IMG/VR virus record: IMGVR_UViG_3300032213_003144
Span: 64,001 to 128,000 of that record
DNA length: 64,000 nucleotides
Source: a virus
Strand: one strand, 5' to 3'
A model generated the notes under the pieces. The model was not told where the DNA came from. It worked only from the letters and a program-made list of their open reading frames with translations, and ran no database searches. Shown piece after piece: positions 39,672-62,944 of the stretch. Positions within the stretch are counted from its first letter, which is position 1, and each line of letters begins with the position of its first letter. The position numbers were made by a program, and so were the translations under genes.

Positions 39672-40232
39672 TCACCTGTCAGCATTTGGTGGCGATTCAA
39701 AGAATGGCCCAGAAATACCCTCTTTCCCGGATGGGGCCTCTATCGGGACCCATGCACGAGCATAGTTGTGTTCTTTTATCTTTCGCACTTTTATCAGACT
39801 GCTGTCAAGCATTAACGATAACTCATCAGATTTCATGCACAACATGTCATCAAAATCCTGGTTCGTGTAGCGACCTGACCGTTTCATCTCGCGAACTATT
39901 TTTGAAAGCTTTGCTGCAACAATGACAGATTTTCCTCGATTTAGCTGAATGTGCATCATCATTGCTTCTAGCTTGTCGCAATCATGGAATACAACAGGTA
40001 TACGATTGCCGTGAATTTCAGATATTTCAGAAATACTCATAAATAGGTTGTATCTCTCCGAACCATCTATTATCTCGCCAGTCTCCCTCCGTGCGTGTAT
40101 TGGGTGTATGAACCCATGCTGCATTAAGGATGAAGAAATTACGAGCAGCTCAGGTCTAATCGTGTATGTTGTCTTCCAATCTGGGATAACGAGCGAGCCA
40201 GCACTAACCCATTCAATTTTTATTTCTTTCAT
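39672..40232 (-). CDS. ParB/Srx-like N-terminal domain protein (IbrB-like)
   Basis: SL..HGFI.PI, IIDG.ER, IPVV, AM..HI.LNR.K. Confidence 0.7.
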   Translation of the reverse strand: MKEIKIEWVSAGSLVIPDWKTTYTIRPELLVISSSLMQHGFIHPIHARRETGEIIDGSERYNLFMSISEISEIHGNRIPVVFHDCDKLEAMMMHIQLNRGKSVIVAAKLSKIVREMKRSGRYTNQDFDDMLCMKSDELSLMLDSSLIKVRKIKEHNYARAWVPIEAPSGKEGISGPFFESPPNADR

Positions 40233-41356
40233 AGTTCTAGTTCGCTTTCAATTATTCTCACTGCATTTGCTTTGGTCTTTGGTCCAACAGGGGTCGGCGA
40301 ATTAACATCTATCTCATTGAGCATGAGATTTCTTATTAACCAAGAAATCGGATATCCATATGGGTCCTGAATATGTTTTTTTCTAAACTTTGAAACATAA
40401 ACACGCGCTTCCATTTTTCTTCTATCGCCAACAAGATACTCTTCAATAAACTCAGATGCACCATCAAATCCTCTACCAGAGTATCTGGCAATAAGGCTTT
40501 CGCTGTCAAATTCAGGCCACCACCTTCGCTGCGCGTCGATGAACGGGAAGCACTCCCAAAGCCTGTCATAAAATTCTGGCTCAGTAGCAATAACATCGCC
40601 TATCCTTCTGATTGCTGTTGCATGGAGCGGTATCCCAACCCTCGTATTACTACCAGTAGCTACCGCCAAGTCGTAGTACTCACAGTATTCGGCTCCGTGT
40701 TCTTCTGTTATGAACTTAAATACGTCATTCGTATTCCAGTCATAAATTACTTTTGCAAATTTAAGAGGAATTCCAGCCTTGAGTTTATATGGAGTATTGA
40801 TGTAATTTTCGTGCAGTTTCTGGACTACGGAGCGATATCGCACCATTGACTCACTAGCCCTAACTCCTGTAAGAAACGCAACATTGCCCTTTTTACCCTG
40901 CATCGTGTAGTAGTCGGTTTGTTCAGGGAGAGACGTACTATGCGATAGACCAAAGTGGTTACCGTTGATAGCAAACTCTGGCATGTCTCTTAGCCATCTT
41001 TGCTGCTCGCCTCTTTGCTCACTCCATAGGATTGTTGTGAGCCTATATCCAAGAATCCAAATTTCAGCAGGGTATGGCAAGCAGTACCACTCCATATCAA
41101 CCCAGTCGTAGTTCCTGACCTTCTCAACGTATTCAACAACGCTTGGGCTCACCATCTCTTCGTCACGGAAAATAACTTTTACCGGACCGAGTCCTCTTTC
41201 TTCGTGCACTTCTTTGGCTAGATAGAGAATTGCTGTTGAGTCTTTCCCACCAGAAAACTGAACGCACACCGTGTCGAACTGGTCGTAGACATGCCTAATA
41301 CGCTGTCTTGCAGCATCCACGCATGTCATATCTAGGAATAATCTCTGTCTAGTCAT
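40229..41356 (-). CDS. PAPS reductase-family PP-loop protein (IbrA-like)
   Basis: V.FSGGKDS, F.DEE, TGVRA.ES..R, IYDW...DV. Confidence 0.85.
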   Translation of the reverse strand: MTRQRLFLDMTCVDAARQRIRHVYDQFDTVCVQFSGGKDSTAILYLAKEVHEERGLGPVKVIFRDEEMVSPSVVEYVEKVRNYDWVDMEWYCLPYPAEIWILGYRLTTILWSEQRGEQQRWLRDMPEFAINGNHFGLSHSTSLPEQTDYYTMQGKKGNVAFLTGVRASESMVRYRSVVQKLHENYINTPYKLKAGIPLKFAKVIYDWNTNDVFKFITEEHGAEYCEYYDLAVATGSNTRVGIPLHATAIRRIGDVIATEPEFYDRLWECFPFIDAQRRWWPEFDSESLIARYSGRGFDGASEFIEEYLVGDRRKMEARVYVSKFRKKHIQDPYGYPISWLIRNLMLNEIDVNSPTPVGPKTKANAVRIIESELEL

Positions 41357-42162
41357 GGTGTGTGCTCTGAGATAAATGAAATTAATTTCTCAGCAACAGT
41401 GTCACCTTCCAATCCTGCGTCAGAACGTAGCCACTTTATGAACGTATACCACTCAGCTTGTTGCTGAGTGTCGTCAAAAACTATTGTGTACTGAACAACA
41501 GCCTGTGGTGCCGAGCGAGGGGAAACCGTGGTTGAACCCCTAATCACTGCGTCGTTCTGGTCGACTCCAGGACGAACATTTATTTGCTGATTTCCATCTT
41601 TGTCTTTTGTTATTGAGACGGTATTTAGGTCGACCGACGTGTCTTTCTTTACTTTTTCTTCTTCTTCTTCTTCTTTAGAAAAAATAATTGGTGGAACGTA
41701 TTTGTCCGAACCAAGAACTTGATACTCTTCCCTGATTGATGTCTGTTCAAATTCTGCAATCTCGAACTCATCCCATCCAAGACTGTCAACGAGCTCTGGA
41801 TACTCTTCGTGAATTTCAAGGATGAACTCACTTAGCAATTCCGCTTCTGTGTAGCCAAGCTCCATTGTTCTGTTGTCGGCAATAGCAAATGCAATCGCCT
41901 TCTTATTGTCAACGTCATAGCTAACTGCTGCTATCTTGTCCCATCCAAGAAGTTTTGCTGCTTCTAGCTGATGGTTACCCGCAATAACTGTTGCCGTTCC
42001 ATCGTCGTTTGGGCGAATAACAATTGGTTTTATCTGCCCAAATTCTTTATATGAAGCCATGATTGACTGGACGTTACCTTTTCTTGGGTTTCCCTCAAGT
42101 GGAACAAGTTTGTCGACATCAACAGCAAGTTGCTTTAATGATTCGTGAATTTTATCTGACAT
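41353..42162 (-). CDS. ParB/Srx N-terminal domain protein
   Basis: NPRKG, S..EFGQ.KPIV, VIAGNH.LEAAK.LGW, A.AIADNR. Confidence 0.85.
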   Translation of the reverse strand: MSDKIHESLKQLAVDVDKLVPLEGNPRKGNVQSIMASYKEFGQIKPIVIRPNDDGTATVIAGNHQLEAAKLLGWDKIAAVSYDVDNKKAIAFAIADNRTMELGYTEAELLSEFILEIHEEYPELVDSLGWDEFEIAEFEQTSIREEYQVLGSDKYVPPIIFSKEEEEEEKVKKDTSVDLNTVSITKDKDGNQQINVRPGVDQNDAVIRGSTTVSPRSAPQAVVQYTIVFDDTQQQAEWYTFIKWLRSDAGLEGDTVAEKLISFISEHTP

Positions 42163-42164
42163 AG

Positions 42165-42500
42165 TTATACCTGTGTTCTGACGTTTGCATTGAGTGTTCT
42201 CATTGCGTCAATTGATGTTCTTAGGGATAGAAGTAATTCTCTCTTCGTTTTAACTAACGCCTCTGCGCACCTGTAGTCAAAATTTTGCTCGTCCATCTTG
42301 TAGTCCGCCCAAGCTTCTCGCTCCTTGATTGAACCCTTCGCGGATAAATATTCGCGAGCCCATGTTGACTTATAGAGCGCATCTTTTTTTGCAGCGTCCA
42401 TCGCTAAGGTTTCAAATTTTTCTGTTTCTGTTTCAAGTCTGTCTATTAGTCTTATAAGCTCTTGTTCAATTTCTACCTGGCTTATGGGTGATGTTCTCAT
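42165..42500 (-). CDS. Coiled-coil hypothetical protein
   Basis: ATG 42500 coupled to the RuvC stop; GGGG RBS-like run. Confidence 0.6.
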   Translation of the reverse strand: MRTSPISQVEIEQELIRLIDRLETETEKFETLAMDAAKKDALYKSTWAREYLSAKGSIKEREAWADYKMDEQNFDYRCAEALVKTKRELLLSLRTSIDAMRTLNANVRTQV

Positions 42501-43027
42501 TATTCCCCTTTTTTCTCGATTGGCGTCCAATCTACCTTGGCTAGGGCATCCATGTTCTGTGCCGGCCAATTAAATCGTGGTTTACCTATGTGGGCCAAGC
42601 CCATCTCCTGCAGAACCCACGCGTCACATCTGTCATCAGCTCCAGGATTTTGCCAAACAATTCCAGTACGTGCTGATATAGACGAAATCACTTCATTTTT
42701 TGATGCGTTTCCTTTTCCGGTTGCAAACTTTGCTCGACACGTTGGGGGTATCGTTACGTAGGGAATTCCAATTTGCCACAGCAGTAGGCGAATCACCCCA
42801 CCGAGCTCTCCAATAGAGAAAGCCTGACCGCTGCGTGAAGCAAACGAGTAACCCTCAAGCATGACGGCCTTTACCTCGTATCTATTGATTAGGGATTCTA
42901 TTTCCCTTTTTACTAGCCAGAGTCTTTCTGGTCCAGACTTATTAAAAGAGATAACTCCAGATTCGTCGCCAAACGCATACCCAGTTGATGTTAGGGATAG
43001 GTCTAGTCCAAGAAAATCGTTTATCAC
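42500..43027 (-). CDS. RuvC-like Holliday junction resolvase
   Basis: LGLDLSLTSTG, VMLEGY, ELGG, P...KFATGKGNASK, DD.CDA; leaderless TAGTAT-6 nt-GTG. Confidence 0.85.
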   Translation of the reverse strand: MINDFLGLDLSLTSTGYAFGDESGVISFNKSGPERLWLVKREIESLINRYEVKAVMLEGYSFASRSGQAFSIGELGGVIRLLLWQIGIPYVTIPPTCRAKFATGKGNASKNEVISSISARTGIVWQNPGADDRCDAWVLQEMGLAHIGKPRFNWPAQNMDALAKVDWTPIEKKGE

Positions 43028-43044
43028 AGTGACATACTAACCTA

Positions 43045-43085
43045 AAAGCAAAAACCCACCGAACATCCAGCGAGTTCGGTGGGTT
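43045..43085 (-). terminator. Intrinsic terminator
   Basis: 12-bp perfect stem AACCCACCGAAC/GTTCGGTGGGTT, 9-nt loop, then TTTGCTTTT on the - strand. Confidence 0.8.
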
Positions 43086-43186
43086 AAATTCGAACCGTTT
43101 GCGGCGGCTCAGAATCATTGCCGTGTAGGAACACTCGACTCTTGGACCACCGCCTTTCTTCCGTGAAGGGTAGATATCGGCTAGAC
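43045..43186 (-). ncRNA. Candidate sRNA-1 (~140 nt) with a segment complementary to the 16S rRNA 3' end
   Basis: TGcTAACCT -10 at 43193-43201, predicted +1 G at 43186, terminator at 43045-85; contains AGAAAGGCGGUGGUCCA. Confidence 0.55.
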
Positions 43187-43252
43187 GAATTAAGGTTAGC
43201 ACTTATGTTATGCACTAATAAGTGAAGAGCTTTTAAATAATGTTCCACTAAA

Positions 43253-43316
43253 GTAAAAAACGCAAAAGCCGAGTGAGTCTCCCCACCCGACTTTCGCGCC
43301 TATAACGGTCCTAAGA
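43253..43316 (-). ncRNA. Candidate sRNA-2 (~63 nt) antisense to 23S rRNA helix 69
   Basis: TATCGT -10 at 43323-28; 5' CUUAGGACCGUUAUAG, then an 18-bp WC/GU stem with GAGA loop and U tract. Confidence 0.6.
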
Positions 43317-43374
43317 ATTACAACGATACACCCGTACTAAATAGTGAAAGTGTTAATTATAAAACTATAAATAA

Positions 43375-43716
43375 TTATCTTTCCCAGCCATGTTTTGCTA
43401 ACCCTAAATCAAACGCAAGTTGAGGGTAATTACCAATTCTTACGTGACACAGCCTGCAAACTGCAAGTACATTTTCCTCATCAAGTATGGAGCCACCCTG
43501 AGAGCGTCTGATTATTTCGTGAACATCCCTACTGAGATGTTGGTTGTATGTCGTCTTGCCGTCGTGAGTTGCAAAAACTTTACAAGCCTCGCATGCCGGT
43601 CTTTCCCTTAGTATTTTTTCAACAAACTTACGCCGTTCGACATAAATCTCTTCGGTTTTTGCACTTCTTTTTTTAGGAGGGCCACTTCTCTTGATTGGTT
43701 TGTTTCTTCGAATCAT
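43375..43716 (-). CDS. HNH endonuclease-like protein
   Basis: CEAC, DVHEIIRRSQGG, NVLAVCRLCH. Confidence 0.75.
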   Translation of the reverse strand: MIRRNKPIKRSGPPKKRSAKTEEIYVERRKFVEKILRERPACEACKVFATHDGKTTYNQHLSRDVHEIIRRSQGGSILDEENVLAVCRLCHVRIGNYPQLAFDLGLAKHGWER

Positions 43717-49950: not shown

Positions 49951-50058
49951 TTTCACTAAACTATTTCTGTAAAACATTCACTTTTTTTAAATACTTACAT
50001 TCTGGAACATGTTTTTCGTTTAATATCGACTAGCAGCCGAGAGAAGTTGGTTCCAAAA

Positions 50059-53000
50059 ATGTCAAATGAAGCATTCGAATACAAGTCATCGGCGCACGGC
50101 TCTCAGTCCATCAAAGGAACGGTCAGCCTAGACGAGGCCCAGGGGATAGTCGAATGTTTCGTAGCTGGAATTGGTAATAAAGACTCAGTCGGAGACGTAT
50201 GTGCTTCAGGAGCCTTCACAAAGAGCCTTCTTCGCAGAAAGCCAAGAGTTGTATGGGGCCACAACTGGAATGACCCTATTGGTAAAGTATTGGAAATATA
50301 CGAGGTTGGTCCACAGGACCCACGCCTCCCACTGAAAATGAAACTTGCCGGGATAGGCGGTTTGTTTGCAAAAGTTCAATTTAATCTAAGTTCAGAAAAA
50401 GGAAAAGAAGCATTTGCTAATGTCCACTTTTTCGGAGAAGAACAAGAGTGGTCGATTGGATACAAAACACTAAGAGCTCAGTTTGACCAAAAGTCGCAAG
50501 CAAATATTCTTTACGAAGTTGAACTCTACGAAGTTAGCCCTGTTCTCCACGGAGCCAATCAGCTAACAGGAACAATATCCGTTAAGGCAGATGATTCCGC
50601 CTACGGAGGTTCAGTAGCAATGATGCCGCAAAGAGAAGAGAGCAACGGCTACGAAGAAATGGAGAAGGAACTCTCCAATCTATTCGGTGCAAAAGTTTCT
50701 GTTCATTCAATCGATGGCGACGAGGTCGTATTCACACGCCAAGAGATGAACGGTGCGAAGAAGTACAAGTGCGGCTTCATGAGAAATCAAGGCCGATACA
50801 TGTTCGGAACTCCTGAAGTAATCAATATTCCGCAGTCCCCAGTTCGTTCTCCTCAATCAGCACCAATGCCTGTGGTGAGCGGAAGACCTACTCCACCCAA
50901 CGACCCACAACGCGTCATTAGACCACAACAGATGCCTTCAATACCAGTTGCGATTAAGCCAAGCGACAATGGGCTAATGATGATTCCTCTTCCAGCTGTT
51001 CAGTATGACTCAAACGAAAAGCCGTCCCTGGACAAGGAGGAAGCAGACCTCCGTGATGCGCTGTTAAAGATAGTTTCACGCCACGGCAAATTTAACGAAG
51101 ACTCTAACGGCGTATGGGCTGGATACAGCCCTGCAGAAGAAAACGAAGTAGCACGTATCGGTGTTAAATGCTCAAACTGCGTCTTCTATCAAGGCGGCTC
51201 AAAGTGCAAAATTATTGACATGCCAGTTGAGCCAGAAGGGAAATGCAGATTTGCTGTTATTCCAAATGGGATTGTTTTGAGCAGTGGTTCCAAAGAACTC
51301 GAAGAGCATGTTTCCGAAGCAGAAAATGCAATCATCGATGTACTAGAACTAAAATACCCAGGCGAGTTTGTTCTTGGAATTGTCAGAAATGCAGTTGGTA
51401 AGAAAAAGAAGAAAAGAAATAAATACAAAAATCTTTCAGAGTTTGGTGATGACGACGACATGGGTGAAAAGTCGTACGTAATACCAGTCGAGCCAAGTTT
51501 TGCATTTAGAGTAAAAACAGCCCTTGACCCAATATTCGATTACCACAGAGCAGAGACTTTTGTTGACTCAGAAGGAATAGTGATTACCTCTGGGGTAACT
51601 GAAAATCTCATAGACGCAGTCGATACGGCTCTTCACAACTTAAAAAAAAAATTCTCAGAACATGAAATAGAGGGAAAATCCCTCGGTTACAGAATAGGTC
51701 GGTCGCTTGGTTCGAGGCTCGTAGATAGACCAAACCTCGGTGGTGGTAGGGATAGAAACAACCGTGGCGGCGGTCGTGGATTCGGGATGCCGGATGGCGA
51801 CCTTGACCCCAGGACAAGAGTTGACAAGAATAGGGATGGAACACTTTTTGATAATGTCCCAGGATGGGAACAGCCAGACCCAACCCCAGATGGACCTGGT
51901 TCGATAAATAACCGAAAACTCTCTTCCTCACAAAGAAGAGATGTTGCCAATATTCCGAGCGAGAGCGTAAACCCAGAATCGGTAGACGGTGACGTAATAA
52001 AGAGCCGCAAACCAAGGTATACGGCTGATGACCTTGGTGAAATCCTTGGAGAAAAGAAGAAGCCAACGAAGAAGGCAGTAGCAAAAAAATCTCCTGTTAA
52101 AAAAGAAAAAGTAAAGCGTGGAGAACTTGATTTCGCTAAGGGTCCCAAAAAAGATAAGACACCATCACTATCCTCTGGTGAGGAAAGACCGCCACGTACT
52201 GCAGTTGCAATGCAGATGGACCCAAAGAATTCGAAGCTTGCAAGACAGATTGATTACGACCCACAGAATGGTGACCTCACTGTTTATTACAGAGATGGCA
52301 AAAAAGAAACATTCAATGATGTTCCTTATGACCGCGTGCGTAAGGCTGGATTTGACGACAAGCCAGATGCATTAATCAGTGCACTACAGAGAGAACAAAA
52401 GAAACCACAAGGCAGGATTAGTCTTGCATCTGGGGAGCAAGAAAAGAGACTTACCCGCCACTCTGGTGACCCAAAATTTGAATCACTTGTATCTCCAGAA
52501 GAACTTGAAAAGCGTAAGAAGTTTGAAGAAGTAATTAAAGACTGGAAAGACTCTGGTTACGGATGGGAAGACGTTCCTAGATACAAGCCAGACGTCTACA
52601 AGTCCCCGGATTATTTGCGTGGTAGGGAAATGGGCGTCAATCAGGCCAAAGTTATGTGGCGTGGAGATAGCACGGTAGAGAGACCAAAGGGATTCAACGA
52701 AAAGCAAAAAGCCTCACTTGATTATCAAGAGTGGTATTCACGAATGGTGATGAGGGCTGGAGCTTTTCTAGAAGCATCACGTGGCGATGACAACGAATTC
52801 TACAACGGCATGGAAGATGCCATGCATGAATTCATGTACAACAATAGACCAGATATAACAACCTACAACATCGATGGAGATAGAAAAGAACCGATGGCCG
52901 ACTGGATGCGTCAGTACGGATTCGACCCAGGCTCACCGACTCCATTAAGAAAGAAAAAAGAAGGAAAGAAGAGAAGTTCACTCTCCCTCTCTTCTGGCGC

Positions 53001-56000
53001 AGACGACGATACAAGACCAAACTTTGATGAAGAGAATTACGAAAGTGATACCAACGTAGATTTCTACGACACCCTTCTTGACATGATGGGCCCAGAAGAA
53101 GAAAGACCAAAAGTCACTTCTCGCAAAAAGCCAAAAGACATGAGTGATGAAGAGATTTATCGCAAGAGAACAACAACCGGAGCATCCCTGCAGGATGTTG
53201 CGGAAGAACTTGGTCTAACTAGAATGGAAGTTAGGAAGCGCGAACAACGACACATGCGCAAAATGCGCAATGAAAAAGACGGCGTATCACTTTCTTCTGG
53301 AGCAAGCGATGACTGGGCCACTTCTAGGGGATACGAGCCAGACAGATTCGACCTTCGCGAAACGATGAATCAAATTGGTAGAGGAAACATAATGGCCATA
53401 TCTGGTGGCCGCGTTGAGCGTAGAGGGAATGAAATGATTCTTCCTTCTACAAAAGACCAGCAAGTAGTCATCGGGTACAACTCGGTTCCAGACCTCTACT
53501 ACGTCAGAGCTGAGCAGAAAATAAATACAGGTAAGGACAAGGGAACCAACAGAATTCTTGCGCAATGGGACGAGGTTTATGCTGACGAAATTGGCGAACT
53601 CGCATATCAGGCAAGTCTCAAGCCAGCAAACCTCAATAGTGAGAACAAGGAGTACTGGAAGCTCGGCAAGGGAAATCAATTTGCAGACAGACTCGTTGAT
53701 AGACGTAGCGGAAAGCTCGTAAGCAGAGAATCAAGAAATCTTCCATCAAAGCCAGCGCCAGAGGAAAGCCCAACTCTTTCTTCGGGTGGCAGAGGTCGTG
53801 ACTACTACAACTACGACATAACAACAACCGATGAAGGAAATGGATTACTCGACCAGGTGCATGATTACCTTGAAGAGAACCCCCTAATCAAAGATGACAT
53901 AACAACCGATATTGCAGACATGCTCGGTGGAGATGGAATAGTTGAGGCTAATGGCTTTGACACAAAAAAGGCATTTGACCTGGTTACTGGTGGAGACGAT
54001 GAGTTCCAGGATTATATGGACATCGTTGATGATGCCATGGAGGCCCTAAGTAATGGCTCCCTAGCAAAGCACAAGGCAACCGTTCGCGATACGAATGTAA
54101 GACTTGAGTCAGCAAAGCCAGGCAGTAATGAAGCAGGAAAACTCGAAGCAATCCGTGATAGGTCGTACGAGTGGATTGGCGACATAAACAAGTATTCACG
54201 CGTATCCACAATTAAAGATAAGAAGAATATTGAAGCCAGCGACGTGGCAACAAGAATGATTTCCAAAGAGCAAGATTCGCTCTGGAATGCTCGCGCGTCA
54301 ATAACAGAAAAATATATTGAAGATATTGCTTCAGCTGGAAAAGAATCAAAGCGCCGTGTATCAATCAGCGCAGTAGATACAGACTCTCGCGACATTCCAG
54401 AGTATGATTTAGCTCTCTCGTCTGGCAGTGTTTTTAAGGATAAACCAGCATCAAAAACGCTTTCCGGTAAGGCTGATGGCCTTTCTCTTGCCTCTGGAGA
54501 AAATAAAAAGATTTATGACGAAATAGGTAAGTCCATTCTTGAGGCATTAATTGAGATGGATAAGAACCCAACAGCAACCTATTGGGACGTACCGTGGAGA
54601 ACACCAACCCTATACGCAAGAAACCCAACAAAGAATCGCCTTTATCAGGGAATGAACTCCCTACTGCTTGCCAATGCGCATAGGCAGAATAAGTACAGAG
54701 GAAATTTCTGGGCCGGGAAGACTCAGTGGGCAAAGTTCGGTGGAACAATAAAGAATGGCAAGGATGGAGTAAATATCCTTGTTCCAAGAGAGGGTTCAAC
54801 CGGAAAATACTTTGTCGTACAGACCGTATATAACCTCGATGATATTGAAGGGCTCCCAGATGCATATGTAAAGAAGCTTCTAGATACAGGAAAGGAACTT
54901 CTTGACCCAGCGACAAAGATAAAGGACGCCGAGTCGGTAATGGAGGAAATTAATCCTGTCATCAAGTTTGGCGGAGATGCTGCATACTTCTCAATTACGA
55001 ATGACCATATTCAAATGCCACCATACGAGATGTTTAAGTCTCCAGAGCAGTACTACTCAACCCTACTGCATGAGCTAACACACTGGACTGGCGGAAAGTC
55101 TCGTCTTGGAAGAAAGCAGGTAGGCCGCCAACAGGACAAGAAGGCTTATGCATACGAGGAATTAATTGCAGAAATGGGTTCTTCTTTCCTTCTTGCCGCA
55201 CTTGGCATCGCACCAGAAGTAAGACAAGACCACGTTGTTTATATCAAGAGTTGGATTTCCAACCTTCGCGAGGACCCGGGTGCATTCGTTAGAGCAATGA
55301 CTGAGGCGCAGCAGGCGGCAGACTGGGTCATGGATAGGTCTCCAACAATGAGAAGACTTTCCGGTGTACCTGATAGCGAAAGAAAAGGAAAGCCAGATGC
55401 GGTTGATGCTGGGGAATCCGCAGTCTCAGAAGTAGTTGAAGAGACTAAGGGCTCTGTTACAGCACTCTCATCCGGCTCTCAAGTTGGATTAAGGAAAGCA
55501 AAAGAACTCAGATACTTTGGCGATGAAAAAGAATATGGCTCAGGCATAACTCAAAGAGACTCCAGTGGAAGGATTCTTGATGAATCTGGAGCACTTTCTC
55601 TTTCAAGTGGTGCAAAACCAATCGTCAGCCTTGACGGTAAAACAACGATTCCAAGACTAGACGACTCTGTCTCGTATAGAGAAAAGTATAAGTTCCTTCC
55701 TGATGAATTTGAACCAACAGAACAACAAAAGGCTTCAATAGACACGCTTGTTCATATGCTTGAAAGTGAGACACCAGGGATTGTCGCTATTGGTGCTGGT
55801 GCTGGTTCAGGAAAGACAACCAACCTTAAACAGAATGCTCGTGCAGTTGCCGCACTTTACCCTGGAAAACAAATTTATTACACCGTATTCAATAGAGGAA
55901 ATGCTAAAGACGGAAACAGGGTGATGCCTAGAAATACAGGTGTTGCAACTGGGAACCAAATAGCATATTGGTCACTTGTTCTTGGAACTGGAGACGCCTT

Positions 56001-59000
56001 CTATGGTGCTGGAACAACCAGAAAGATACAACTCGGAGTTGGTCCAAGAGACTCCAAGAAGTTGCGAGGAGCAAAACGTAACACCGTGAACGTTGCAACC
56101 ACGTTTGAGGGAGAAACAAAGGAATTCGCAGGAGAGATACCAGGGTACAGAGAGCTTGGGTACACAAGCTATGACTCTGCACCGAATATCGCAGAACGCC
56201 TTGCTAAAGATGGGATTGTTGACGAAGAAACTGATGATGGTTTTACTATTTCCCAAAATCTCAAAAAAGCTCTTGGCAGGTTTGCTGAAAGCTCGGATGA
56301 GAAGCTGTCAAAACAACATTTCCTACTTCGTGATATAGAGAAAATTCAGGCATTACAAAATGGTGAACCAGTACCAACTGAAGATTCAATCGATGAAAAA
56401 ATGGTTCAATATGCACAAATGCTTTGGGATGAAACAGTTGACCCAAAATCAAACGTGCTTATCCCGCAGGACTATCAAATCAAGATGTGGGCCCTAACAA
56501 ATCCAGACCTTAGGTATGACAAAGGACTGATTGGTCACAGGCCAAACGAAACAGTGTTTGATAAAGTTTTTCTTGGAACCGTTGAGGAAATGAACTCCGG
56601 AAAAATAAAAGTCGGAGACCTTGTAGAATTTAAAATTCCAGAAACTGGAGAAAAAGTTGCAGCAGTAATACGAAAACTAAACCCTCCATCAAAGAAAGAA
56701 ACAAAAAAGGGTGAGCTATCTGGCAGTAGACAAGTAACCGGAACTGTATCGATTGTTTCTGTCACGAGTGATAAGCCTCTTGATGTGTTCATGTTCGACG
56801 AGGCCCAAGACGTAAACCCTGTGTTGGCAAAAGTACTCGCCGATAATGCAAAGAACATGCCGATAATAATGGTTGGCGACTCACGCCAAGCAATCTATGG
56901 GTTCAGAGGAGCCATGGATGCCCTGGAGAAAGCTAATGCAACATTCAGACTTCCTCTAACACGTTCATTTAGGTATGGAGCAATCCCTGCATATTTAGCC
57001 AATGTCGTGCTGATGCAAGGCAATATAGACGATTTTAACTTTTATCAAAACATGGGAACACCCGAAAAAAACATATGGCACCATGTTGTAGGAGAGGCGC
57101 AAAATGTTGTTATAAACGCGCTCAACATAAACGGACCAGATGGGAAAATACTTCCTAAAAAAGAACTTGAAAAGAAACTTAAATTCATAGAAGTTAAATA
57201 CAAACTTGGCGGAAGAGCTGTCGACTTTAAGGGCAAAAACGAAAAAGAAGTAAAAGACATCATTTCAAAACTTTACGACGAACATGTCCCACGCGCTGAA
57301 GGTCAGATAGTTGAGGACATGACTAGTGCTGATGCTGTTCTAACTTCTACCAACTCCGGAGTAATGGTCGAAGCCTTGAAGGTAATCCAGGACGGTATTA
57401 ATGCACATCAAATCGCGTATCTCGACCTAGATGGAATAGAAGATATAAAAAATCCAGAAGAGCTAGCTGGAAGACTAAGAACATTATCCGAGAAATACAC
57501 TCTTGATGGTGTTGCTGTAGACCTTATAGAAATATTGGAAAAAGATGGTAGAGATTCAATGCTCAATGCCGTCAATGAACTTAGAGAAGAATATGCTCCA
57601 GGTGGAGCTGACGGGAAAATACCAGCCATTGGCATACCTGCCGACACACATGAAAAGTTTCTTGATTTCTTCACTCAACTCGACTGGATTATTGGTGACC
57701 TTGATAAGAAGTTTGGAATCGAAGGAAGACCAAAACCATCTAAACTACTTAAAGACGTATGGAGATTTGATAAGAAAAAGGGCAGATACCCATCAAAAGA
57801 TGAGATGCTGGCAAAAATTGACAAGATGATTAAGGGTGGAGAATCAGAACTTCGCACGCTTTACAACCTTGCTTACCCCAAGTCCAAGGATGGAGGGGTA
57901 AGAGGTGATGCAAAAGGGGCAAGATTCTTTAAAGACCTTTTACGTCCACAAGGCCAAAAATATACTGACATAAATGGAACTGAGGTTAAGTACCAAGGCC
58001 TTAGACCAATGCGTGAAGGAATCAATCTTCCGAATATGGAATCTGGTCGAGACCACATAACTACCGAAGAGATGGACAGAGTCGGAAAGCTTAAGCCTGG
58101 AACAAAATCTGGAAGCAGCCAAAAAATTTCCTGGATAATACCCAAGAAGGAAGAGAGCGTATCTGATGGTGAGGTATTCGTAAAACTTCACATCGGAGAA
58201 AACGGAAAGCCATCTGGAGCGTTGATAATTGCAGGCGATGGAGCGCACGGAGGAAAGTACAAAGTCAGAAGATGGAATAAGGCCAAGAAAACCTGGAGCC
58301 CAATCGAAGAGGGGAAACCAGGGAAGATTGACTACCACGGTGATATATCAAAAGTTATAAAAAAGATGAAAGCTGAATACCCAGACGCCGTAATTGAATT
58401 TAGGCAGGGACTAATACAGCAAGTTGGTACAGCTCAGACATTCCCATCAGACATATCTGATGATTTTGTCCCACCAATGAAAGGTGATTTGCCAGATAGT
58501 TCTGTGCCAAGAGCTTCGCTTCCAGGGTTCTTCATACAAGGAAAAGACAGCGAAGAAACTGCGCGTCTTGCCAATGAACTCGGAAACAGGGTTAGACAAC
58601 TTGCCACGGAAGGAAACACGGATACCGACATTATGACGGTTCATGTTTCCAAGGGCAGGGAGTGGAAGAGGGTCAGACTCGCTGATGATTTCAAAAATCC
58701 TGAAGACATGGTCCCAGTAATACCAGAAGAAGAATTAGCAAAGTTAAGTCCAAAGGACAGACTTGCTGTCGAGAGACAGCTCCAATTGATGCGCAGAGAA
58801 GAGCACAACAAGGTATACATTGCAATAACCAGAGCTCAAGAGCAAATAGATATTGGCGCAGTTCTTGCAAAACTTTATTTTGATGATTCACAAAACGCAT
58901 CTATAAAAAGTGCAAAAGATAAAATTGCAGAAAATCCAGATGGAATATATGACGAGCTTCAGGCTCCTGCTGGTTTCTATGTTCCGTATTCTGGTGATAC

Positions 59001-61131
59001 AGAAGCACGCGATGCTGCCAGAAAAGAACGCAGAAAGAGATTGGATGAGTCTTTCGATAGATACGTCAAGTCACAAGGAAAGACCAAAGATGTCGCTCCA
59101 GAAGAAGATGATGAACCAGAGGTGGAGGACGAATCTGGCGGTTTTGACTCTGGTGACCCTGATTTTGTTGATGTTGCTGGACCTGATGATGATGGAGCTG
59201 AAGAATTCGACGAAGAAGATGGCGACGTGCAGTCACTCTCCCTTTCTTCAGGAGCAAAGAAGAAGAAAACCAATAGGGCAAATAGGCGTCTTCCATTTAG
59301 TGAGCAAGAGAGACAAAGCCTTGCCGATGGAGACATATTGCGCTCAAAGAAAATACCCAAGAAGCGCAAACCAGCTCCGTCAAAAGAGGAGTTTGACGAC
59401 CTAGCTCTTGCCTCTGGAGCCAATACACCAGAGGGAAGATACGCCAGAAGACTGAGGTCGATAAGCCTTTCCAGCGGCAACAATGAGCTTGGCGCTGGAG
59501 CACAGAATCAAAGAATAAGTGGAAAGAGATTCGCCCGCAATATTTCCGGACCAAAAGACCTTGCATCGATAAGAGTTGATGGTGACCCAAGTAAAGACCC
59601 AAACGCAAAGAGAAAAATTGAATATGCGATGAGTTTCTGGCGTGGTGTCAGGGAACGCGGAATTGCTTTTGACCCCCAAGACGCATCACAAGATAGAAAG
59701 TCGATAGAAATTAATAACGCCATTTCTTCTGTGTCAAAATCCATGGCTACGCGACCAAAAGCCAAAATTGGTAAAGTTTCACAGAATCAAATAAAAGATG
59801 ATGTGAACCCAGACGAGTGGTTTGTCCCAGTATCAAAACTTAGGGATGCAATCAGAATTCCAACAGAATTCTCCAACTCCCCCGCGGACCCATCCAATCC
59901 AAATAGCAGAATGATTGCACGATGGACCCAAACAAGGCCATTAAGCAACGAAGAGTTGGGCAAGATGCTCTCTCTCAGCAAGACCGACATTGCAAAACTG
60001 TCAGACGATGATGCAGGAATAACCCACGACTCGGTTAGATTCCTGCTTGCGGCCATGGGGCAGCAGGAAGGTTTTGAGGCATGGAACTTTTTTGCTCCAA
60101 CATCTACTACCGAAGATGGAGTTTCCGCCATGTCTACTTCTGAGAAGTTCGTAGAGAATCTCGGAAGAGCCAACATGCGAGACAGGTTCATCATCGAAAC
60201 CTTTGGAAAAGACGCTTTCCCTTACTGGATTGACAAAGATGAGAATACCGTCATCGGCCAAAAGGAGTACTCATCGCTAGGCGAGGTCAGCGAGATGTCG
60301 AAGTTCAGGTCATCGGGTCTGTTTAGTAATAAGAGGAACGAATCAAACTTCTCCTCAACAGCCGAGGAGATGCTTCTTGAAGAGGCAGTATTTGGTGGAG
60401 ATGACACTCCAAGCGACATGGTTAAGCAGTCTGTCGTGGAAGCAGCTTCAGCCCCATCAGACAAGACCAGCCGAGAGCAGTTTGACGTAGACCAGCTCCT
60501 TGAGTCGTTGGGTATCGATAAGAGTGATAAGTGGCATGAAGAGCTGAAGAGGAGAATGGTCGAGTCTTTCGGGGTTGACGATGTCGGCCTGAATACGAGA
60601 GAGATTGCTAGAAACTGGGAGGCCGGTGGAGTCCCAACTACATACATAAATGAGATGATTAGAACAGGGATGATTCCTGATGCAAAGTCGGTATGGAAGA
60701 AAGATGAATCTGGCAAAAAGCTAGACCAAGAGCTGGCAGCATCTAAGCACTCCGTGTATGAAGCCCTGTATGAATTTACTCAGTCAAAGCACGCTGCTGA
60801 TAAAGCCAAAAACACTAGACGGAATAGGGACTACATCCTTAATTCTTCTGACTTCACGGTCTCCCATAAGGGTGTCGCTGCCAGAAAGGGAGCCACATTC
60901 TCAAAGAAAACTGGTGATGAAAGAAGATTCAGTCAGGGCGAACTACAGAATGTTGTAAATCGTTTTAATGAAATTTTTGGAACTAACTACAAGATTGATG
61001 ACATCTTTAGTGCTGAACAGTTGCGCAATGCAACAAAGAGATTGAGAGAGGAAGGCAGGACTCTGTATGGAGATGACGCCTCCGAACTCGGTAAAAGAGT
61101 TATCCTTAAGAAAGATAAAGACAAGAAGTAA
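50059..61131 (+). CDS. Giant polyvalent protein: HK97-type prohead protease fused to KTSC-like, sigma70-r4-like HTH, ArdC (ssDNA-binding + zincin) and SF1/UvrD-like helicase domains
   Basis: Protease GHNW..PIG, WSIGY, LYEVSPV; ArdC W..PW, Y.G.N.L.L, HELTHWTG, YAYEELIAE; helicase AGAGSGKTT, DEAQD, VGDSRQAIYGFRGA, LTRSFR, TVH.SKG.EW, YIAITRA. Confidence 0.85.
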   Translation: MSNEAFEYKSSAHGSQSIKGTVSLDEAQGIVECFVAGIGNKDSVGDVCASGAFTKSLLRRKPRVVWGHNWNDPIGKVLEIYEVGPQDPRLPLKMKLAGIGGLFAKVQFNLSSEKGKEAFANVHFFGEEQEWSIGYKTLRAQFDQKSQANILYEVELYEVSPVLHGANQLTGTISVKADDSAYGGSVAMMPQREESNGYEEMEKELSNLFGAKVSVHSIDGDEVVFTRQEMNGAKKYKCGFMRNQGRYMFGTPEVINIPQSPVRSPQSAPMPVVSGRPTPPNDPQRVIRPQQMPSIPVAIKPSDNGLMMIPLPAVQYDSNEKPSLDKEEADLRDALLKIVSRHGKFNEDSNGVWAGYSPAEENEVARIGVKCSNCVFYQGGSKCKIIDMPVEPEGKCRFAVIPNGIVLSSGSKELEEHVSEAENAIIDVLELKYPGEFVLGIVRNAVGKKKKKRNKYKNLSEFGDDDDMGEKSYVIPVEPSFAFRVKTALDPIFDYHRAETFVDSEGIVITSGVTENLIDAVDTALHNLKKKFSEHEIEGKSLGYRIGRSLGSRLVDRPNLGGGRDRNNRGGGRGFGMPDGDLDPRTRVDKNRDGTLFDNVPGWEQPDPTPDGPGSINNRKLSSSQRRDVANIPSESVNPESVDGDVIKSRKPRYTADDLGEILGEKKKPTKKAVAKKSPVKKEKVKRGELDFAKGPKKDKTPSLSSGEERPPRTAVAMQMDPKNSKLARQIDYDPQNGDLTVYYRDGKKETFNDVPYDRVRKAGFDDKPDALISALQREQKKPQGRISLASGEQEKRLTRHSGDPKFESLVSPEELEKRKKFEEVIKDWKDSGYGWEDVPRYKPDVYKSPDYLRGREMGVNQAKVMWRGDSTVERPKGFNEKQKASLDYQEWYSRMVMRAGAFLEASRGDDNEFYNGMEDAMHEFMYNNRPDITTYNIDGDRKEPMADWMRQYGFDPGSPTPLRKKKEGKKRSSLSLSSGADDDTRPNFDEENYESDTNVDFYDTLLDMMGPEEERPKVTSRKKPKDMSDEEIYRKRTTTGASLQDVAEELGLTRMEVRKREQRHMRKMRNEKDGVSLSSGASDDWATSRGYEPDRFDLRETMNQIGRGNIMAISGGRVERRGNEMILPSTKDQQVVIGYNSVPDLYYVRAEQKINTGKDKGTNRILAQWDEVYADEIGELAYQASLKPANLNSENKEYWKLGKGNQFADRLVDRRSGKLVSRESRNLPSKPAPEESPTLSSGGRGRDYYNYDITTTDEGNGLLDQVHDYLEENPLIKDDITTDIADMLGGDGIVEANGFDTKKAFDLVTGGDDEFQDYMDIVDDAMEALSNGSLAKHKATVRDTNVRLESAKPGSNEAGKLEAIRDRSYEWIGDINKYSRVSTIKDKKNIEASDVATRMISKEQDSLWNARASITEKYIEDIASAGKESKRRVSISAVDTDSRDIPEYDLALSSGSVFKDKPASKTLSGKADGLSLASGENKKIYDEIGKSILEALIEMDKNPTATYWDVPWRTPTLYARNPTKNRLYQGMNSLLLANAHRQNKYRGNFWAGKTQWAKFGGTIKNGKDGVNILVPREGSTGKYFVVQTVYNLDDIEGLPDAYVKKLLDTGKELLDPATKIKDAESVMEEINPVIKFGGDAAYFSITNDHIQMPPYEMFKSPEQYYSTLLHELTHWTGGKSRLGRKQVGRQQDKKAYAYEELIAEMGSSFLLAALGIAPEVRQDHVVYIKSWISNLREDPGAFVRAMTEAQQAADWVMDRSPTMRRLSGVPDSERKGKPDAVDAGESAVSEVVEETKGSVTALSSGSQVGLRKAKELRYFGDEKEYGSGITQRDSSGRILDESGALSLSSGAKPIVSLDGKTTIPRLDDSVSYREKYKFLPDEFEPTEQQKASIDTLVHMLESETPGIVAIGAGAGSGKTTNLKQNARAVAALYPGKQIYYTVFNRGNAKDGNRVMPRNTGVATGNQIAYWSLVLGTGDAFYGAGTTRKIQLGVGPRDSKKLRGAKRNTVNVATTFEGETKEFAGEIPGYRELGYTSYDSAPNIAERLAKDGIVDEETDDGFTISQNLKKALGRFAESSDEKLSKQHFLLRDIEKIQALQNGEPVPTEDSIDEKMVQYAQMLWDETVDPKSNVLIPQDYQIKMWALTNPDLRYDKGLIGHRPNETVFDKVFLGTVEEMNSGKIKVGDLVEFKIPETGEKVAAVIRKLNPPSKKETKKGELSGSRQVTGTVSIVSVTSDKPLDVFMFDEAQDVNPVLAKVLADNAKNMPIIMVGDSRQAIYGFRGAMDALEKANATFRLPLTRSFRYGAIPAYLANVVLMQGNIDDFNFYQNMGTPEKNIWHHVVGEAQNVVINALNINGPDGKILPKKELEKKLKFIEVKYKLGGRAVDFKGKNEKEVKDIISKLYDEHVPRAEGQIVEDMTSADAVLTSTNSGVMVEALKVIQDGINAHQIAYLDLDGIEDIKNPEELAGRLRTLSEKYTLDGVAVDLIEILEKDGRDSMLNAVNELREEYAPGGADGKIPAIGIPADTHEKFLDFFTQLDWIIGDLDKKFGIEGRPKPSKLLKDVWRFDKKKGRYPSKDEMLAKIDKMIKGGESELRTLYNLAYPKSKDGGVRGDAKGARFFKDLLRPQGQKYTDINGTEVKYQGLRPMREGINLPNMESGRDHITTEEMDRVGKLKPGTKSGSSQKISWIIPKKEESVSDGEVFVKLHIGENGKPSGALIIAGDGAHGGKYKVRRWNKAKKTWSPIEEGKPGKIDYHGDISKVIKKMKAEYPDAVIEFRQGLIQQVGTAQTFPSDISDDFVPPMKGDLPDSSVPRASLPGFFIQGKDSEETARLANELGNRVRQLATEGNTDTDIMTVHVSKGREWKRVRLADDFKNPEDMVPVIPEEELAKLSPKDRLAVERQLQLMRREEHNKVYIAITRAQEQIDIGAVLAKLYFDDSQNASIKSAKDKIAENPDGIYDELQAPAGFYVPYSGDTEARDAARKERRKRLDESFDRYVKSQGKTKDVAPEEDDEPEVEDESGGFDSGDPDFVDVAGPDDDGAEEFDEEDGDVQSLSLSSGAKKKKTNRANRRLPFSEQERQSLADGDILRSKKIPKKRKPAPSKEEFDDLALASGANTPEGRYARRLRSISLSSGNNELGAGAQNQRISGKRFARNISGPKDLASIRVDGDPSKDPNAKRKIEYAMSFWRGVRERGIAFDPQDASQDRKSIEINNAISSVSKSMATRPKAKIGKVSQNQIKDDVNPDEWFVPVSKLRDAIRIPTEFSNSPADPSNPNSRMIARWTQTRPLSNEELGKMLSLSKTDIAKLSDDDAGITHDSVRFLLAAMGQQEGFEAWNFFAPTSTTEDGVSAMSTSEKFVENLGRANMRDRFIIETFGKDAFPYWIDKDENTVIGQKEYSSLGEVSEMSKFRSSGLFSNKRNESNFSSTAEEMLLEEAVFGGDDTPSDMVKQSVVEAASAPSDKTSREQFDVDQLLESLGIDKSDKWHEELKRRMVESFGVDDVGLNTREIARNWEAGGVPTTYINEMIRTGMIPDAKSVWKKDESGKKLDQELAASKHSVYEALYEFTQSKHAADKAKNTRRNRDYILNSSDFTVSHKGVAARKGATFSKKTGDERRFSQGELQNVVNRFNEIFGTNYKIDDIFSAEQLRNATKRLREEGRTLYGDDASELGKRVILKKDKDKK

Positions 61132-61271
61132 GACGAAGGTCCAGGGTCTACATTTCCATCTAAACCACTAAATATTGCTAATCCATTCCAGAGGCGCGTG
61201 GTAGGTTATAATTTAGACCATTAACAAAAGGTAACACCAACTGGTGATTGCCTGTAAATTTCAGGAGTCAT

Positions 61272-62924
61272 ATGAGCTACGACGAAAAGGCCAATGTAAG
61301 CATCGATGCTGATGGAAACGTGCTGAAGTGCGCCAAGGGTGCCGCCCCTACCGAATGTGGCTTTGTAAAGGGTTCAGAGTTGTGCGCAAAATGTGGCGCG
61401 ATACCTTTACAGATGAAGATGGTCCCGATGGAAGACATGGTCGACGAGGACATGGTCGACGCCGAAAAGCCAATGAAGAAAAAGAATAAGAAGAAAATGA
61501 TTTCACTTCCAGATGGAAGCAATGAAGAAGAAGATGATGACGAAGAAGATGATGAAGTACTGGGCGACGGAGAGATTCCGGAAGATGCCGTTGGCATGAC
61601 AAAGCCAGACCTCAAGAAGCCAAGCCAAAAAGGCATGGACATGCAAATGGACGCCATGATGGCAGAGGGTGAAGAAGAAGACGAAGATGACGAAGAAGAA
61701 GACGAAGAAGAAATAACCGCCGCAGAGGGAATGGAAGACGAAGACATGTCTGAAGAGGAGCTTGAAAAAGCGCTCAACTGGATGAAGAGTCGTCGCATGG
61801 CCGAAAAGGGCGACATGGAAGTTGACGAAGAAATCGATGAAGAAGTCTCGGCAGAAACAGAAGTTCCTGAAGATGAAATGTCGGAAGACGACATCATGAA
61901 AGCATTGAATTACGTTCGCAAAATGAAGAAAATGCACGAGAAGGGTATTGACCCAGAGGAAGAAACCGACGAGCAAGTACTTTTCGATGCAGCAGACAAG
62001 GATTGGAATGACCTGAGAGAAGAGCGAATTGCATCGCTTGGAATCAAGTCGGAAGAAATTGGTCCTGACGGCTTTGTTTGTGCTCTTGACAGAAAAGCAC
62101 ATCCAGCAGGAATGTCGGTATGTGATGACTGCCCGGGCGGATGTGTTTCCGAAAAGGGACTCCCAGGACTTCTCCACGTTGAAGGTCTCGCCGAAAAAGC
62201 ATTTGATGGTTTTGTGGTTGACTCTGGTTATTCATCAGATGCCGACATGTTCGTCATCGACGTTCAGACAAAGGACGGCTCAGTCAAGGAAGTATTCGTT
62301 GACGGAACAACTGCGGAAATTATGGGATTCCATAAACTTGACTCAGAAGAGTTTGAACAAAAATCAGACTACACAAGTTTGAAACTTGTCGATTTTTCGG
62401 AAGCAGCAGAGATTGCTGTTAAGTCAATCGAGGGCCACGTAGTTGCTGTTGAGCCAGATGTTTTTGAAGGCTTCGATGCATACGCTGTAGAAATTGACGG
62501 AATTGACGGAAAGTCGTATGACGTTTTTGTTGCTTTGGACGGAGAAATTCTAGGTTACGACAAGTACGAGCCTGAAGAAGCAGAAGAGATTGAAGCAGAA
62601 GCAGCAGAGATTGCTCTTAAGAGAGCATTCACCGATGAGCAGAGAGAGTCGATGTCCAAAGAGGGCTCGGCAATGTCGGATGGCTCGTACCCAATTGCAT
62701 CTGAGAACGACCTACGAAATGCTGTTCAGGCTTTTGGTAGAGCAAAGGATAAAGACAAAGCTAAGCGTCACATCATGAAGAGAGCACGTGAGCTAAAGTT
62801 GGAGAGTCTTATCCCTGCAAATTGGCTCGCAGGAAGCAAGGAAAAGAGTGACGAGGTTGTAAATGATGCAGATTTCATGGCGGCCCTTGTTGAATTCCAG
62901 CTTCTCGAAAATAACATCGACTAA
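61272..62924 (+). CDS. Acidic head-associated protein with Cys clusters and PepSY-like repeats
   Basis: AGGAG RBS; D/E tracts; two (Y/F).(V/I)(E/D)(V/I)...DG....V.V...GE(I)(M/L)G units; C-terminal YPI....DL.NA.QAFGRAK. Confidence 0.65.
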   Translation: MSYDEKANVSIDADGNVLKCAKGAAPTECGFVKGSELCAKCGAIPLQMKMVPMEDMVDEDMVDAEKPMKKKNKKKMISLPDGSNEEEDDDEEDDEVLGDGEIPEDAVGMTKPDLKKPSQKGMDMQMDAMMAEGEEEDEDDEEEDEEEITAAEGMEDEDMSEEELEKALNWMKSRRMAEKGDMEVDEEIDEEVSAETEVPEDEMSEDDIMKALNYVRKMKKMHEKGIDPEEETDEQVLFDAADKDWNDLREERIASLGIKSEEIGPDGFVCALDRKAHPAGMSVCDDCPGGCVSEKGLPGLLHVEGLAEKAFDGFVVDSGYSSDADMFVIDVQTKDGSVKEVFVDGTTAEIMGFHKLDSEEFEQKSDYTSLKLVDFSEAAEIAVKSIEGHVVAVEPDVFEGFDAYAVEIDGIDGKSYDVFVALDGEILGYDKYEPEEAEEIEAEAAEIALKRAFTDEQRESMSKEGSAMSDGSYPIASENDLRNAVQAFGRAKDKDKAKRHIMKRARELKLESLIPANWLAGSKEKSDEVVNDADFMAALVEFQLLENNID

Positions 62925-62944
62925 CGGCATCATGGATACCCGCT

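Follow-up and report, generated by a model that had tools for sequence, protein, structure and literature searches.

A candidate phage RNA complementary to helix 69 of 23S rRNA and a neighbouring putative anti-16S RNA in a large freshwater phage

Features of the RNA1 and RNA2 locus

The stretch of DNA analysed here, referred to as the window, comprises 64,000 nucleotides (positions 64,001 to 128,000 of the IMG/VR virus record IMGVR_UViG_3300032213_003144) from the genome of a large freshwater phage (170,425 bp). In a minus-strand run that also holds a terminase, a Rad52/22-family protein and a PD-(D/E)XK nuclease, a candidate small RNA, RNA1, sits between an HNH gene and a RuvC-like gene. A second RNA, RNA2, starts about 60 nt downstream of RNA1 and had been missed by the sequence-only reading of this DNA. 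The features, all on the minus strand, are as follows, from upstream to downstream.

43375..43716, minus strand: HNH protein of 113 aa (Pfam HNH below cut-off; PHROG HNH), the upstream flank, outside the RNA unit
43351..43356, minus strand: upstream promoter box of RNA1, TTAACA, 22 nt ahead of the -10 hexamer
43323..43328, minus strand: -10-like hexamer of RNA1, TATCGT, 7 nt before the guide
43300..43316, minus strand: RNA1 guide, 16 nt complementary to 23S rRNA 1914-1929 plus a G-U pair with G1930; unpaired in the fold
43260..43299, minus strand: RNA1 hairpin of 18 bp with five G-U pairs and a GAGA loop, with zero linker to the guide
43254..43259, minus strand: U tract (six T), the probable 3' end of RNA1 in the studied phage; weak or absent in many relatives
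43193..43198, minus strand: -10-like hexamer of RNA2, TAACCT, after TGC; most of alignment A2 has TG-n-TANNNT here
43045..43190, minus strand: RNA2, a conserved structured RNA of about 145 nt with its own terminator (fold z -3.4)
43143..43159, minus strand: RNA2 core, which complements the final 17 nt of the host 16S rRNA (the anti-Shine-Dalgarno tail) with one mismatch and one G-U pair
43053..43085, minus strand: RNA2 terminator hairpin
42500..43027, minus strand: RuvC-like resolvase, the downstream flank, with its own leaderless-type -10 at 43034-43039

The sequence-only reading had proposed that an RNA of about 63 nt, antisense to helix 69 of 23S rRNA, is encoded here, and judged from the sequence this still appears to be the best reading of the locus. 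The plus strand at 43300-43315 is indeed the 23S segment 1914-1929, and the -10 hexamer (TATCGT, read from 43328 to 43323), its spacing of 7 nt and the 18-pair minus-strand hairpin with five G-U pairs, GAGA loop and six following T were all found as described. Beyond these 16 nt, the base preceding the guide can form a G-U pair with G1930 of 23S rRNA, by which 17 pairs become possible. The minus strand reaches a fold z score of -5.6 with the guide unpaired, and the plus strand -2.0 or weaker. Allowing up to 3 mismatches, the 16-mer has a single match within the 64-kb window (0.21 expected), and allowing up to 2 mismatches it has a single match across the 170,425-bp genome. It is also the longest exact match between the genome and reference 23S rRNA (16 nt), lying within the helix 69-70 context. 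RNA1 is non-coding by ORF scan, with no ORF of at least 50 aa starting inside it, and its hairpin scores as an intrinsic terminator at this locus. No Rfam family was found in the window, where the local best scores were 14-21 bits against cut-offs of 45-90.

Conservation in related and unrelated phages

Relatives of the locus were gathered via HNH homology, so that RNA presence was not a selection criterion among the 80 loci obtained. The RNA1 guide is kept on a constant strand in 69 of the 80 (57 exact copies and 12 with one or two changes), and the guide-bearing loci reach down to 64% HNH identity. Among the 11 guide-less loci, six end before ruvC, one has other genes inserted, and four (L051, L052, L053 and L073) are empty sites at which HNH abuts ruvC and the guide and hairpin are both missing. 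Because the hairpin is lost with the guide at these sites, RNA1 can be regarded as a free-standing cassette and not as the HNH terminator. On the same ground, and with the U tract weak in many relatives, a simple HNH-operon terminator was rejected as the identity of RNA1. A hairpin retained without the 16-mer, which the sequence-only reading had said would mark it as just such a terminator, was seen in none of the relatives.

The conservation check also came out in favour of the candidate RNA, since across the 80 HNH-defined loci the guide is held while the hairpin covaries and the -10 spacing stays fixed. Thirteen of the 16 guide columns are invariant among 38 distinct sequences. The hairpin has two-sided changes in 12 of 14 outer pairs and 99.4% of cells paired, with shuffled and slid controls far lower, although these covariation counts are inflated by the relatedness of the copies. 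TANNNT is located 7-8 nt ahead of the guide in 46 of 60 non-redundant minimal-class loci, and the TTAACA box is partly conserved, with T at -27 in 84%. The stem in relatives is mostly 16-20 bp long and follows the guide with zero linker, and the distance between RNA1 and HNH varies between 16 and 2821 nt. Neither the GNRA loop nor the U tract, both present at the studied locus and counted by the earlier reading among the marks of this RNA, is conserved in relatives, and they are therefore not defining features. Taken from sequence comparison, this profile is that of an apparently independent promoter-guide-hairpin cassette, selected for guide sequence and hairpin shape. A pairing-breaking change, U14C, is found in 12 of the 69 guide loci. 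One subclade (L013-L020, L024, L025, L031 and L032) has RNA2 upstream of RNA1, an extra 5' hairpin and U14C, and its -10 box lies 18-23 nt from the guide.

RNA2 is equipped with a -10 box and a terminator of its own and contains a conserved core and a small hairpin that covaries; two-sided changes are found in 11 of the 14 pairs of its consensus. It is present in 56 of the 80 loci and stands beside RNA1 in 55 of 69, mostly downstream and, in the one subclade, upstream. In 14 loci RNA1 has no RNA2 nearby, which indicates that RNA1 does not need RNA2. The RNA2 core is the best window of the genome against the 16S end, by a small margin (-26.2 versus -24.8 kcal/mol for the next), and 20 variant cores pair at -21 to -33 kcal/mol, each reaching 14-20 pairs through G-U changes and a bulge of 0-2 nt. 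In the studied phage the core is predicted to be self-masked, and its binding may therefore be switchable. A peptide gene in RNA2 was considered and rejected, as loop lengths shift the frame and most copies have no start. In most relatives the 5' TCTAGCC of RNA2 (43179-43185) complements GCTAG(A) of the terminator loop (43053-43085), a possible long-range pairing; the studied phage has GCTGGA in this loop instead. In L065 and L150, the core also pairs with about 3 nt of the precursor trailer beyond the mature 16S 3' end, which hints weakly at pre-rRNA as a target.

Outside the clade, an exact scan of IMG/VR with the 16-mer gave at least 119 stretches, and none of the matches listed lies in an rRNA gene. 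The earlier estimate of how often a single locus would match rRNA by chance is superseded by this conservation. Among the exact matches listed, 53 of 59 distinct ones are element-like, compared with none of 7 distinct ones for a control 16-mer (11 matches), and the guide strand is the better folded one in 39 of the 51 distinct exact matches listed. In unrelated phages the complement continues along the rRNA in either direction, or its portion against helix 70 (TCGCTAC) is placed in a separate loop, an arm that RNA1 does not have. Several cultured Vibrio phages (qdvp001, PWH3a-P1, 10AMN, R16F, P018-4 and others) carry an unannotated intergenic version, which has two G-U-type changes and a helix 70 loop. 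Since these phages are cultured and the E. coli-type target is identical, the uncultured host is not needed for tests. No cultured phage matching the 300-nt RNA1 plus RNA2 cassette was found.

A captured rRNA fragment and an attP or homing site were both rejected as the origin of the 16-mer: the match stops at 16 nt, none of the exact-match loci listed has full 23S context, and the complement is split in other phages. No integrase was found among the 10 neighbouring proteins searched. At the three guide positions that permit wobble, 30 of 32 element-like variants have the G-U-preserving letter, although these changes are transitions, a class that is more frequent in any case. G10A, a transition that disrupts pairing at a control position, still occurs in four element-like sequences. 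Overall, the variant spectrum favours RNA-RNA pairing from the guide strand, though not absolutely.

Several further elements were seen during these searches. The G10A guides in L398, L402 and L394 would be expected to fit a host with U1920 without any mismatch. Cultured Vibrio phages (L244:2501-2620, L245:2501-2620 and L246:2001-2120) contain a three-hairpin relative of the anti-23S RNA that is not annotated, and the element of 10AMN is located about 100 nt before a tRNA-Arg gene. In L298 and L330, anti-23S elements stop immediately ahead of a tRNA-like sequence. In Staphylococcus phage SpP, a 17-nt helix 69 complement without annotation (L249:1501-1517) precedes a hairpin, and both lie upstream of a split terminase gene.

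Host, target and expression

Two WhiB genes in the phage genome indicate an Actinomycetota host. Actinomycetota have two main helix 69 types, of which one fits the guide, whereas the other (CAT-type, Actinomycetes) has two mismatches. When the phage SSB was compared with 401 genomes having 23S rRNA in the assembly, nearly all of the best matches were of the guide-matching type, a tally that takes in the unpublished genomes G051 and G091. The named best matches are Ilumatobacter coccineus, an Acidimicrobiales MAG and IMCC26256. The hosts are thus likely Acidimicrobiia, a placement drawn from one protein at about 50% identity. Of 8 host-like genomes, 7 carry a perfect guide target. In all five such genomes searched, sites within 2 mismatches of the guide are confined to the 23S genes; short imperfect mRNA targets are possible. 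Predicted net binding, calculated for naked RNA and not for assembled subunits, is -18.7 kcal/mol with the matching helix 69 type versus -6.7 kcal/mol with the other type, and the best other duplex of RNA1 within the phage reaches -18.8 versus -27.8 kcal/mol. RlmH methylates U1915, and the modified base would prevent one of the guide pairs. No member of the RlmH family was found in five host-like genomes, while the family was detected in 8 of 14 controls, and the helix 69 loop of these hosts can therefore be expected to pair fully with the guide.

Covariation between guide and host was tried as a further line of evidence, and the tests were negative both for a CAT-type guide and for G1916 hosts. 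A CAT-type guide gave 11 chance-level matches in IMG/VR and 3 unstructured ones in metagenomes, and the host variant G1916, which would fit U14C guides, is nearly absent (3 matches among 185,579 genomes). An RNA1 model search of five host genomes, run without a positive control, gave nothing. One of the CAT-type 16-mer matches (L208:2052-2067) extends the complement by 3 nt inside an inverted repeat and may be a real variant or chance. In L259 (G393) the SSB clusters with an Ilumatobacteraceae MAG, yet helix 69 is of the CAT-type, which its relatives do not share, with two guide mismatches. A 2-kb contig in a Pseudonocardia lutea assembly (L212) has a 23S helix 69 that differs from the other copy in that genome and is probably a contaminant.

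For the timing of expression, the major capsid and tail sheath genes are preceded by the same layout of TTAACA, 22 nt and a -10 hexamer. Outside the early region, 13 matches have spacer 22, and 5 of them are placed between genes and ahead of a gene or RNA1, compared with 0-2 of 6-14 for other spacers, but the sample is small and RNA1 itself is one of the five and the source of the pattern. Genome-wide the promoter pattern showed no enrichment (29 versus 49 in shuffles). The shared promoter layout suggests that RNA1 is expressed late. Four lake metatranscriptome runs were searched as contigs only, and one run gave two short pieces; one RNA contig with a depth of 3.8 spans 43311-43449, and it could stem from DNA or from read-through of HNH. 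Among the 119 genes outside the early region, 62 have SD-like leaders, compared with a background of 15%, and 19 look leaderless; a bias of the phage towards leaderless mRNA found no support.

Proposed mechanism and alternative explanations

RNA1 is very probably a real, functional RNA and probably an rRNA-binding one, and we give pairing of RNA1 with 23S rRNA a high likelihood. We lean slightly towards a two-RNA system in which RNA1 on 23S helix 69 and RNA2 on the 16S 3' tail would control joining, maturation or survival of both subunits by base-pairing alone, with several anti-helix-69 architectures in unrelated phages of different hosts. The full mechanism, set out step by step here, builds on observed sequence, conservation, covariation, promoter spacing and a perfect and unique target in host-like genomes, to which transcription, timing, binding, blocked joining and purpose are added as proposed steps. 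First, RNA1 (about 63 nt) would be made from its own, probably late, promoter. Using the helix 69 loop as a toehold, its 5' end would displace the 3' strand of the helix and pair with 23S 1914-1930. The guide spans five bases of the loop, together with the complete 3' strand of helix 69 and the connection to helix 70, a reach well suited to toehold invasion while the 50S is free or immature. Since helix 69 is buried in 70S, invasion would be confined to free or still-assembling 50S. Because there is no linker before it, the hairpin can stack on the guide-23S duplex; it would protect the 3' end and project where helix 44 of 30S docks. Subunits bound by RNA1 could then no longer form bridge B2a and would be withdrawn from subunit joining, and RNA2 would act likewise on the 16S 3' tail of 30S. 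As a probable pay-off, surplus or nascent host subunits would be idled and sent to decay, and their nucleotides freed for phage DNA synthesis.

Several published results are in line with these steps. Helix 69 forms a bridge with helix 44 of the small subunit (PMC12805891; PMC7038079), and helices 69-71 differ among 50S assembly intermediates (PMC11194073). Growth is inhibited by PNA against helix 69 and by PNA against the 16S mRNA-binding site, according to a review (PMC7038079), and free subunits trigger rRNA decay with an RNase E cut after 23S 1942 (PMC4931109). On the strength of this bridge, the toehold fit, the PNA inhibition and the decay of free subunits, the full mechanism, in which RNA1 opens helix 69 of free or immature 50S, blocks joining and leaves the subunits idled or decayed, is put forward tentatively, at a little under an even chance. 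However, many phage genes look SD-led, and an RNA that inhibits ribosomes late in infection would compete with the production of virion proteins. The pairing-breaking variants U14C and G10A, the negative covariation tests, the derivation of the host from one protein and the calculation of energies for naked RNA also weigh against it.

The same contacts might instead serve protection. RNA1 and RNA2 would then reversibly cover interface RNA of idle subunits against host nucleases (MazF-type toxins and starvation RNases), and the ribosomes would be kept usable for the phage, which we consider unlikely but the most serious of the alternatives. RNA2 covers the 16S tail that is cut by MazF-mt3 and MazF-mt11 (PMC5408214; PMC12274833) and from which RNase PH trims about 20 nt on free 30S (PMC4931109), and MazF/PemK genes are present in 5 of 5 host-like genomes, where the MazF targets may differ. 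The predicted self-masking of the RNA2 core, which may be a switch, and the need of the phage for SD-led translation late would also fit protection. On the other hand, RNA1 ends at 1930 and leaves the loop 70 toxin site and the cut after 1942 uncovered, and a 17-bp duplex with the net gain predicted above has no obvious release route. The 16S anti-SD tail and 23S helix 69-71 are also where MazF-mt3, MazF-mt11 and the decay by RNase PH and RNase E act, but these are cutting proteins, whereas the phage would supply complementary RNAs.

The sequence-only reading had also offered that RNA1 guides an enzyme, for which no positive support was found. Here the hairpin would recruit an enzyme of phage or host, be it the neighbouring HNH protein, RNase III or one that modifies RNA, which the guide would direct to cleave or modify helix 69. 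The constant geometry, with no linker and a stem of 16-20 bp that would give a nicked helix of about 34 bp upon binding, and the HNH gene upstream in the studied clade agree with such a role, but it is improbable in our view. The hairpin sequence and loop vary freely, with no box or protein-binding motif, the distance to HNH is highly variable and HNH persists without RNA1, and the same architecture occurs with no HNH homologue nearby in L104, L116, L128 and L139. An HNH-associated guide system of the IscB-omegaRNA or HEARO kind was rejected on similar grounds, as the RNA is only about 63 nt long, the guide is invariant, the HNH spacing runs from 16 to 2821 nt, and each occurs alone. Archaeal and eukaryotic C/D and H/ACA guides have antisense elements of 10-21 nt to conserved rRNA segments, and RNA1 resembles them in its antisense element. 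Unlike them, RNA1 has no C/D, H or ACA boxes in alignment A1, where only guide columns are conserved, and no linked partner enzyme. In bacteria, rRNA modification is carried out by stand-alone enzymes.

It is also conceivable, though quite improbable, that the rRNA match is coincidental, and that RNA1 is an ordinary terminator with the 16-mer as a DNA site (operator, attachment or homing) or pairing with another RNA. The terminator score of the hairpin and some of the pairing-breaking variants can be read in this way, and the 23S segment complementary to the guide is in the region targeted by homing endonucleases such as I-CeuI. Against this, the empty sites without hairpin indicate that the operon does not need it. 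A complement that is prolonged along the rRNA, or split between a stem and a distant loop in unrelated phages, is impossible for a contiguous DNA site, the variants favour strand-specific G-U pairing, and neither the host-like genomes (within 2 mismatches) nor the phage, by duplex energy, has a comparable other target. Finally, a plus-strand transcript, which would be rRNA sense, could mimic helix 69 as a decoy and soak up a host factor or toxin, but this is hardly credible, since promoter, hairpin and U tract are all on the minus strand, the guide strand is usually the better folded one, and the plus strand has no 5' strand of helix 69 and cannot form the helix. The probability remaining beyond the preferred explanation and these four belongs to other rRNA-pairing outcomes.

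With regard to other known systems, trans-acting sRNAs act on mRNAs via short imperfect seeds, whereas the only full host match of RNA1 is 23S rRNA, with 16-17 contiguous pairs. RNA1 resembles this class in having a promoter of its own, as judged from the fixed -10 spacing, a covarying 3' hairpin, an intergenic location and no coding capacity. Genes of trans-acting base-pairing sRNAs are likewise short and stand alone, and their RNAs leave a 5' seed unpaired ahead of the hairpin. A phage-encoded example of the class is the subject of a preprint (bioRxiv 10.1101/2024.10.31.621285). Plasmid ctRNAs (Rfam ctRNA_pGA1) are similar in size and in having a single-stranded 5' tail and one long hairpin, but they are cis-encoded against an overlapping mRNA leader. 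The genes flanking RNA1 are on the same strand as RNA1, and the ctRNA_pGA1 match (19.9 bits versus a cut-off of 45) involves the hairpin only. Synthetic PNAs against helix 69 (Kulik 2017) and the 16S mRNA-binding site (Hatamoto 2009) have the same two rRNA targets, compared at region level through a review (PMC7038079), and demonstrate that antisense pairing can reach both, at the cost of growth. Unlike RNA1, these PNAs are man-made molecules with a neutral backbone, which are not encoded and have no hairpin.

If the proposal is correct, RNA1 would stand for a new class of regulator, namely natural RNAs pairing with a functional centre of the ribosome that is conserved universally, and it would be a naturally evolved counterpart of the antisense antibacterials against helix 69. 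To our knowledge, the small RNAs described from phages and bacteria have mRNAs as their targets, and the agents that attack the ribosome are proteins or antibiotics. No description of a phage RNA antisense to 23S rRNA was found in the literature covered, most subscription journals lying outside this coverage. The present analysis covered the minimal guide-plus-hairpin architecture, the empty sites, the host match, and the presence of a putative anti-23S and a putative anti-16S RNA in one cassette. That such elements occur in phages unrelated to one another suggests a widespread, unrecognised way of taking over the host or countering its defences. The proposal also opens to test how phages handle the host ribosome pool, and whether rRNA serves as feedstock for phage DNA synthesis in nutrient-poor waters.

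Elsewhere in the genome, sheath-like tail and major capsid genes are present, together with proteins that, recognised by eye, look like ribonucleotide reductase and ThyX and count in favour of the proposed mechanism. Downstream of ruvC, a three-gene module on the minus strand (window 39672-42162; ParB-like, PAPS-reductase-like and ParB_N) is conserved in relatives and is possibly a DNA-modification unit. From 50047 to 64000 of the window and beyond, the genome holds very long ORFs of 3694, 2699 and 2583 aa, and a prohead protease domain opens the first of them.
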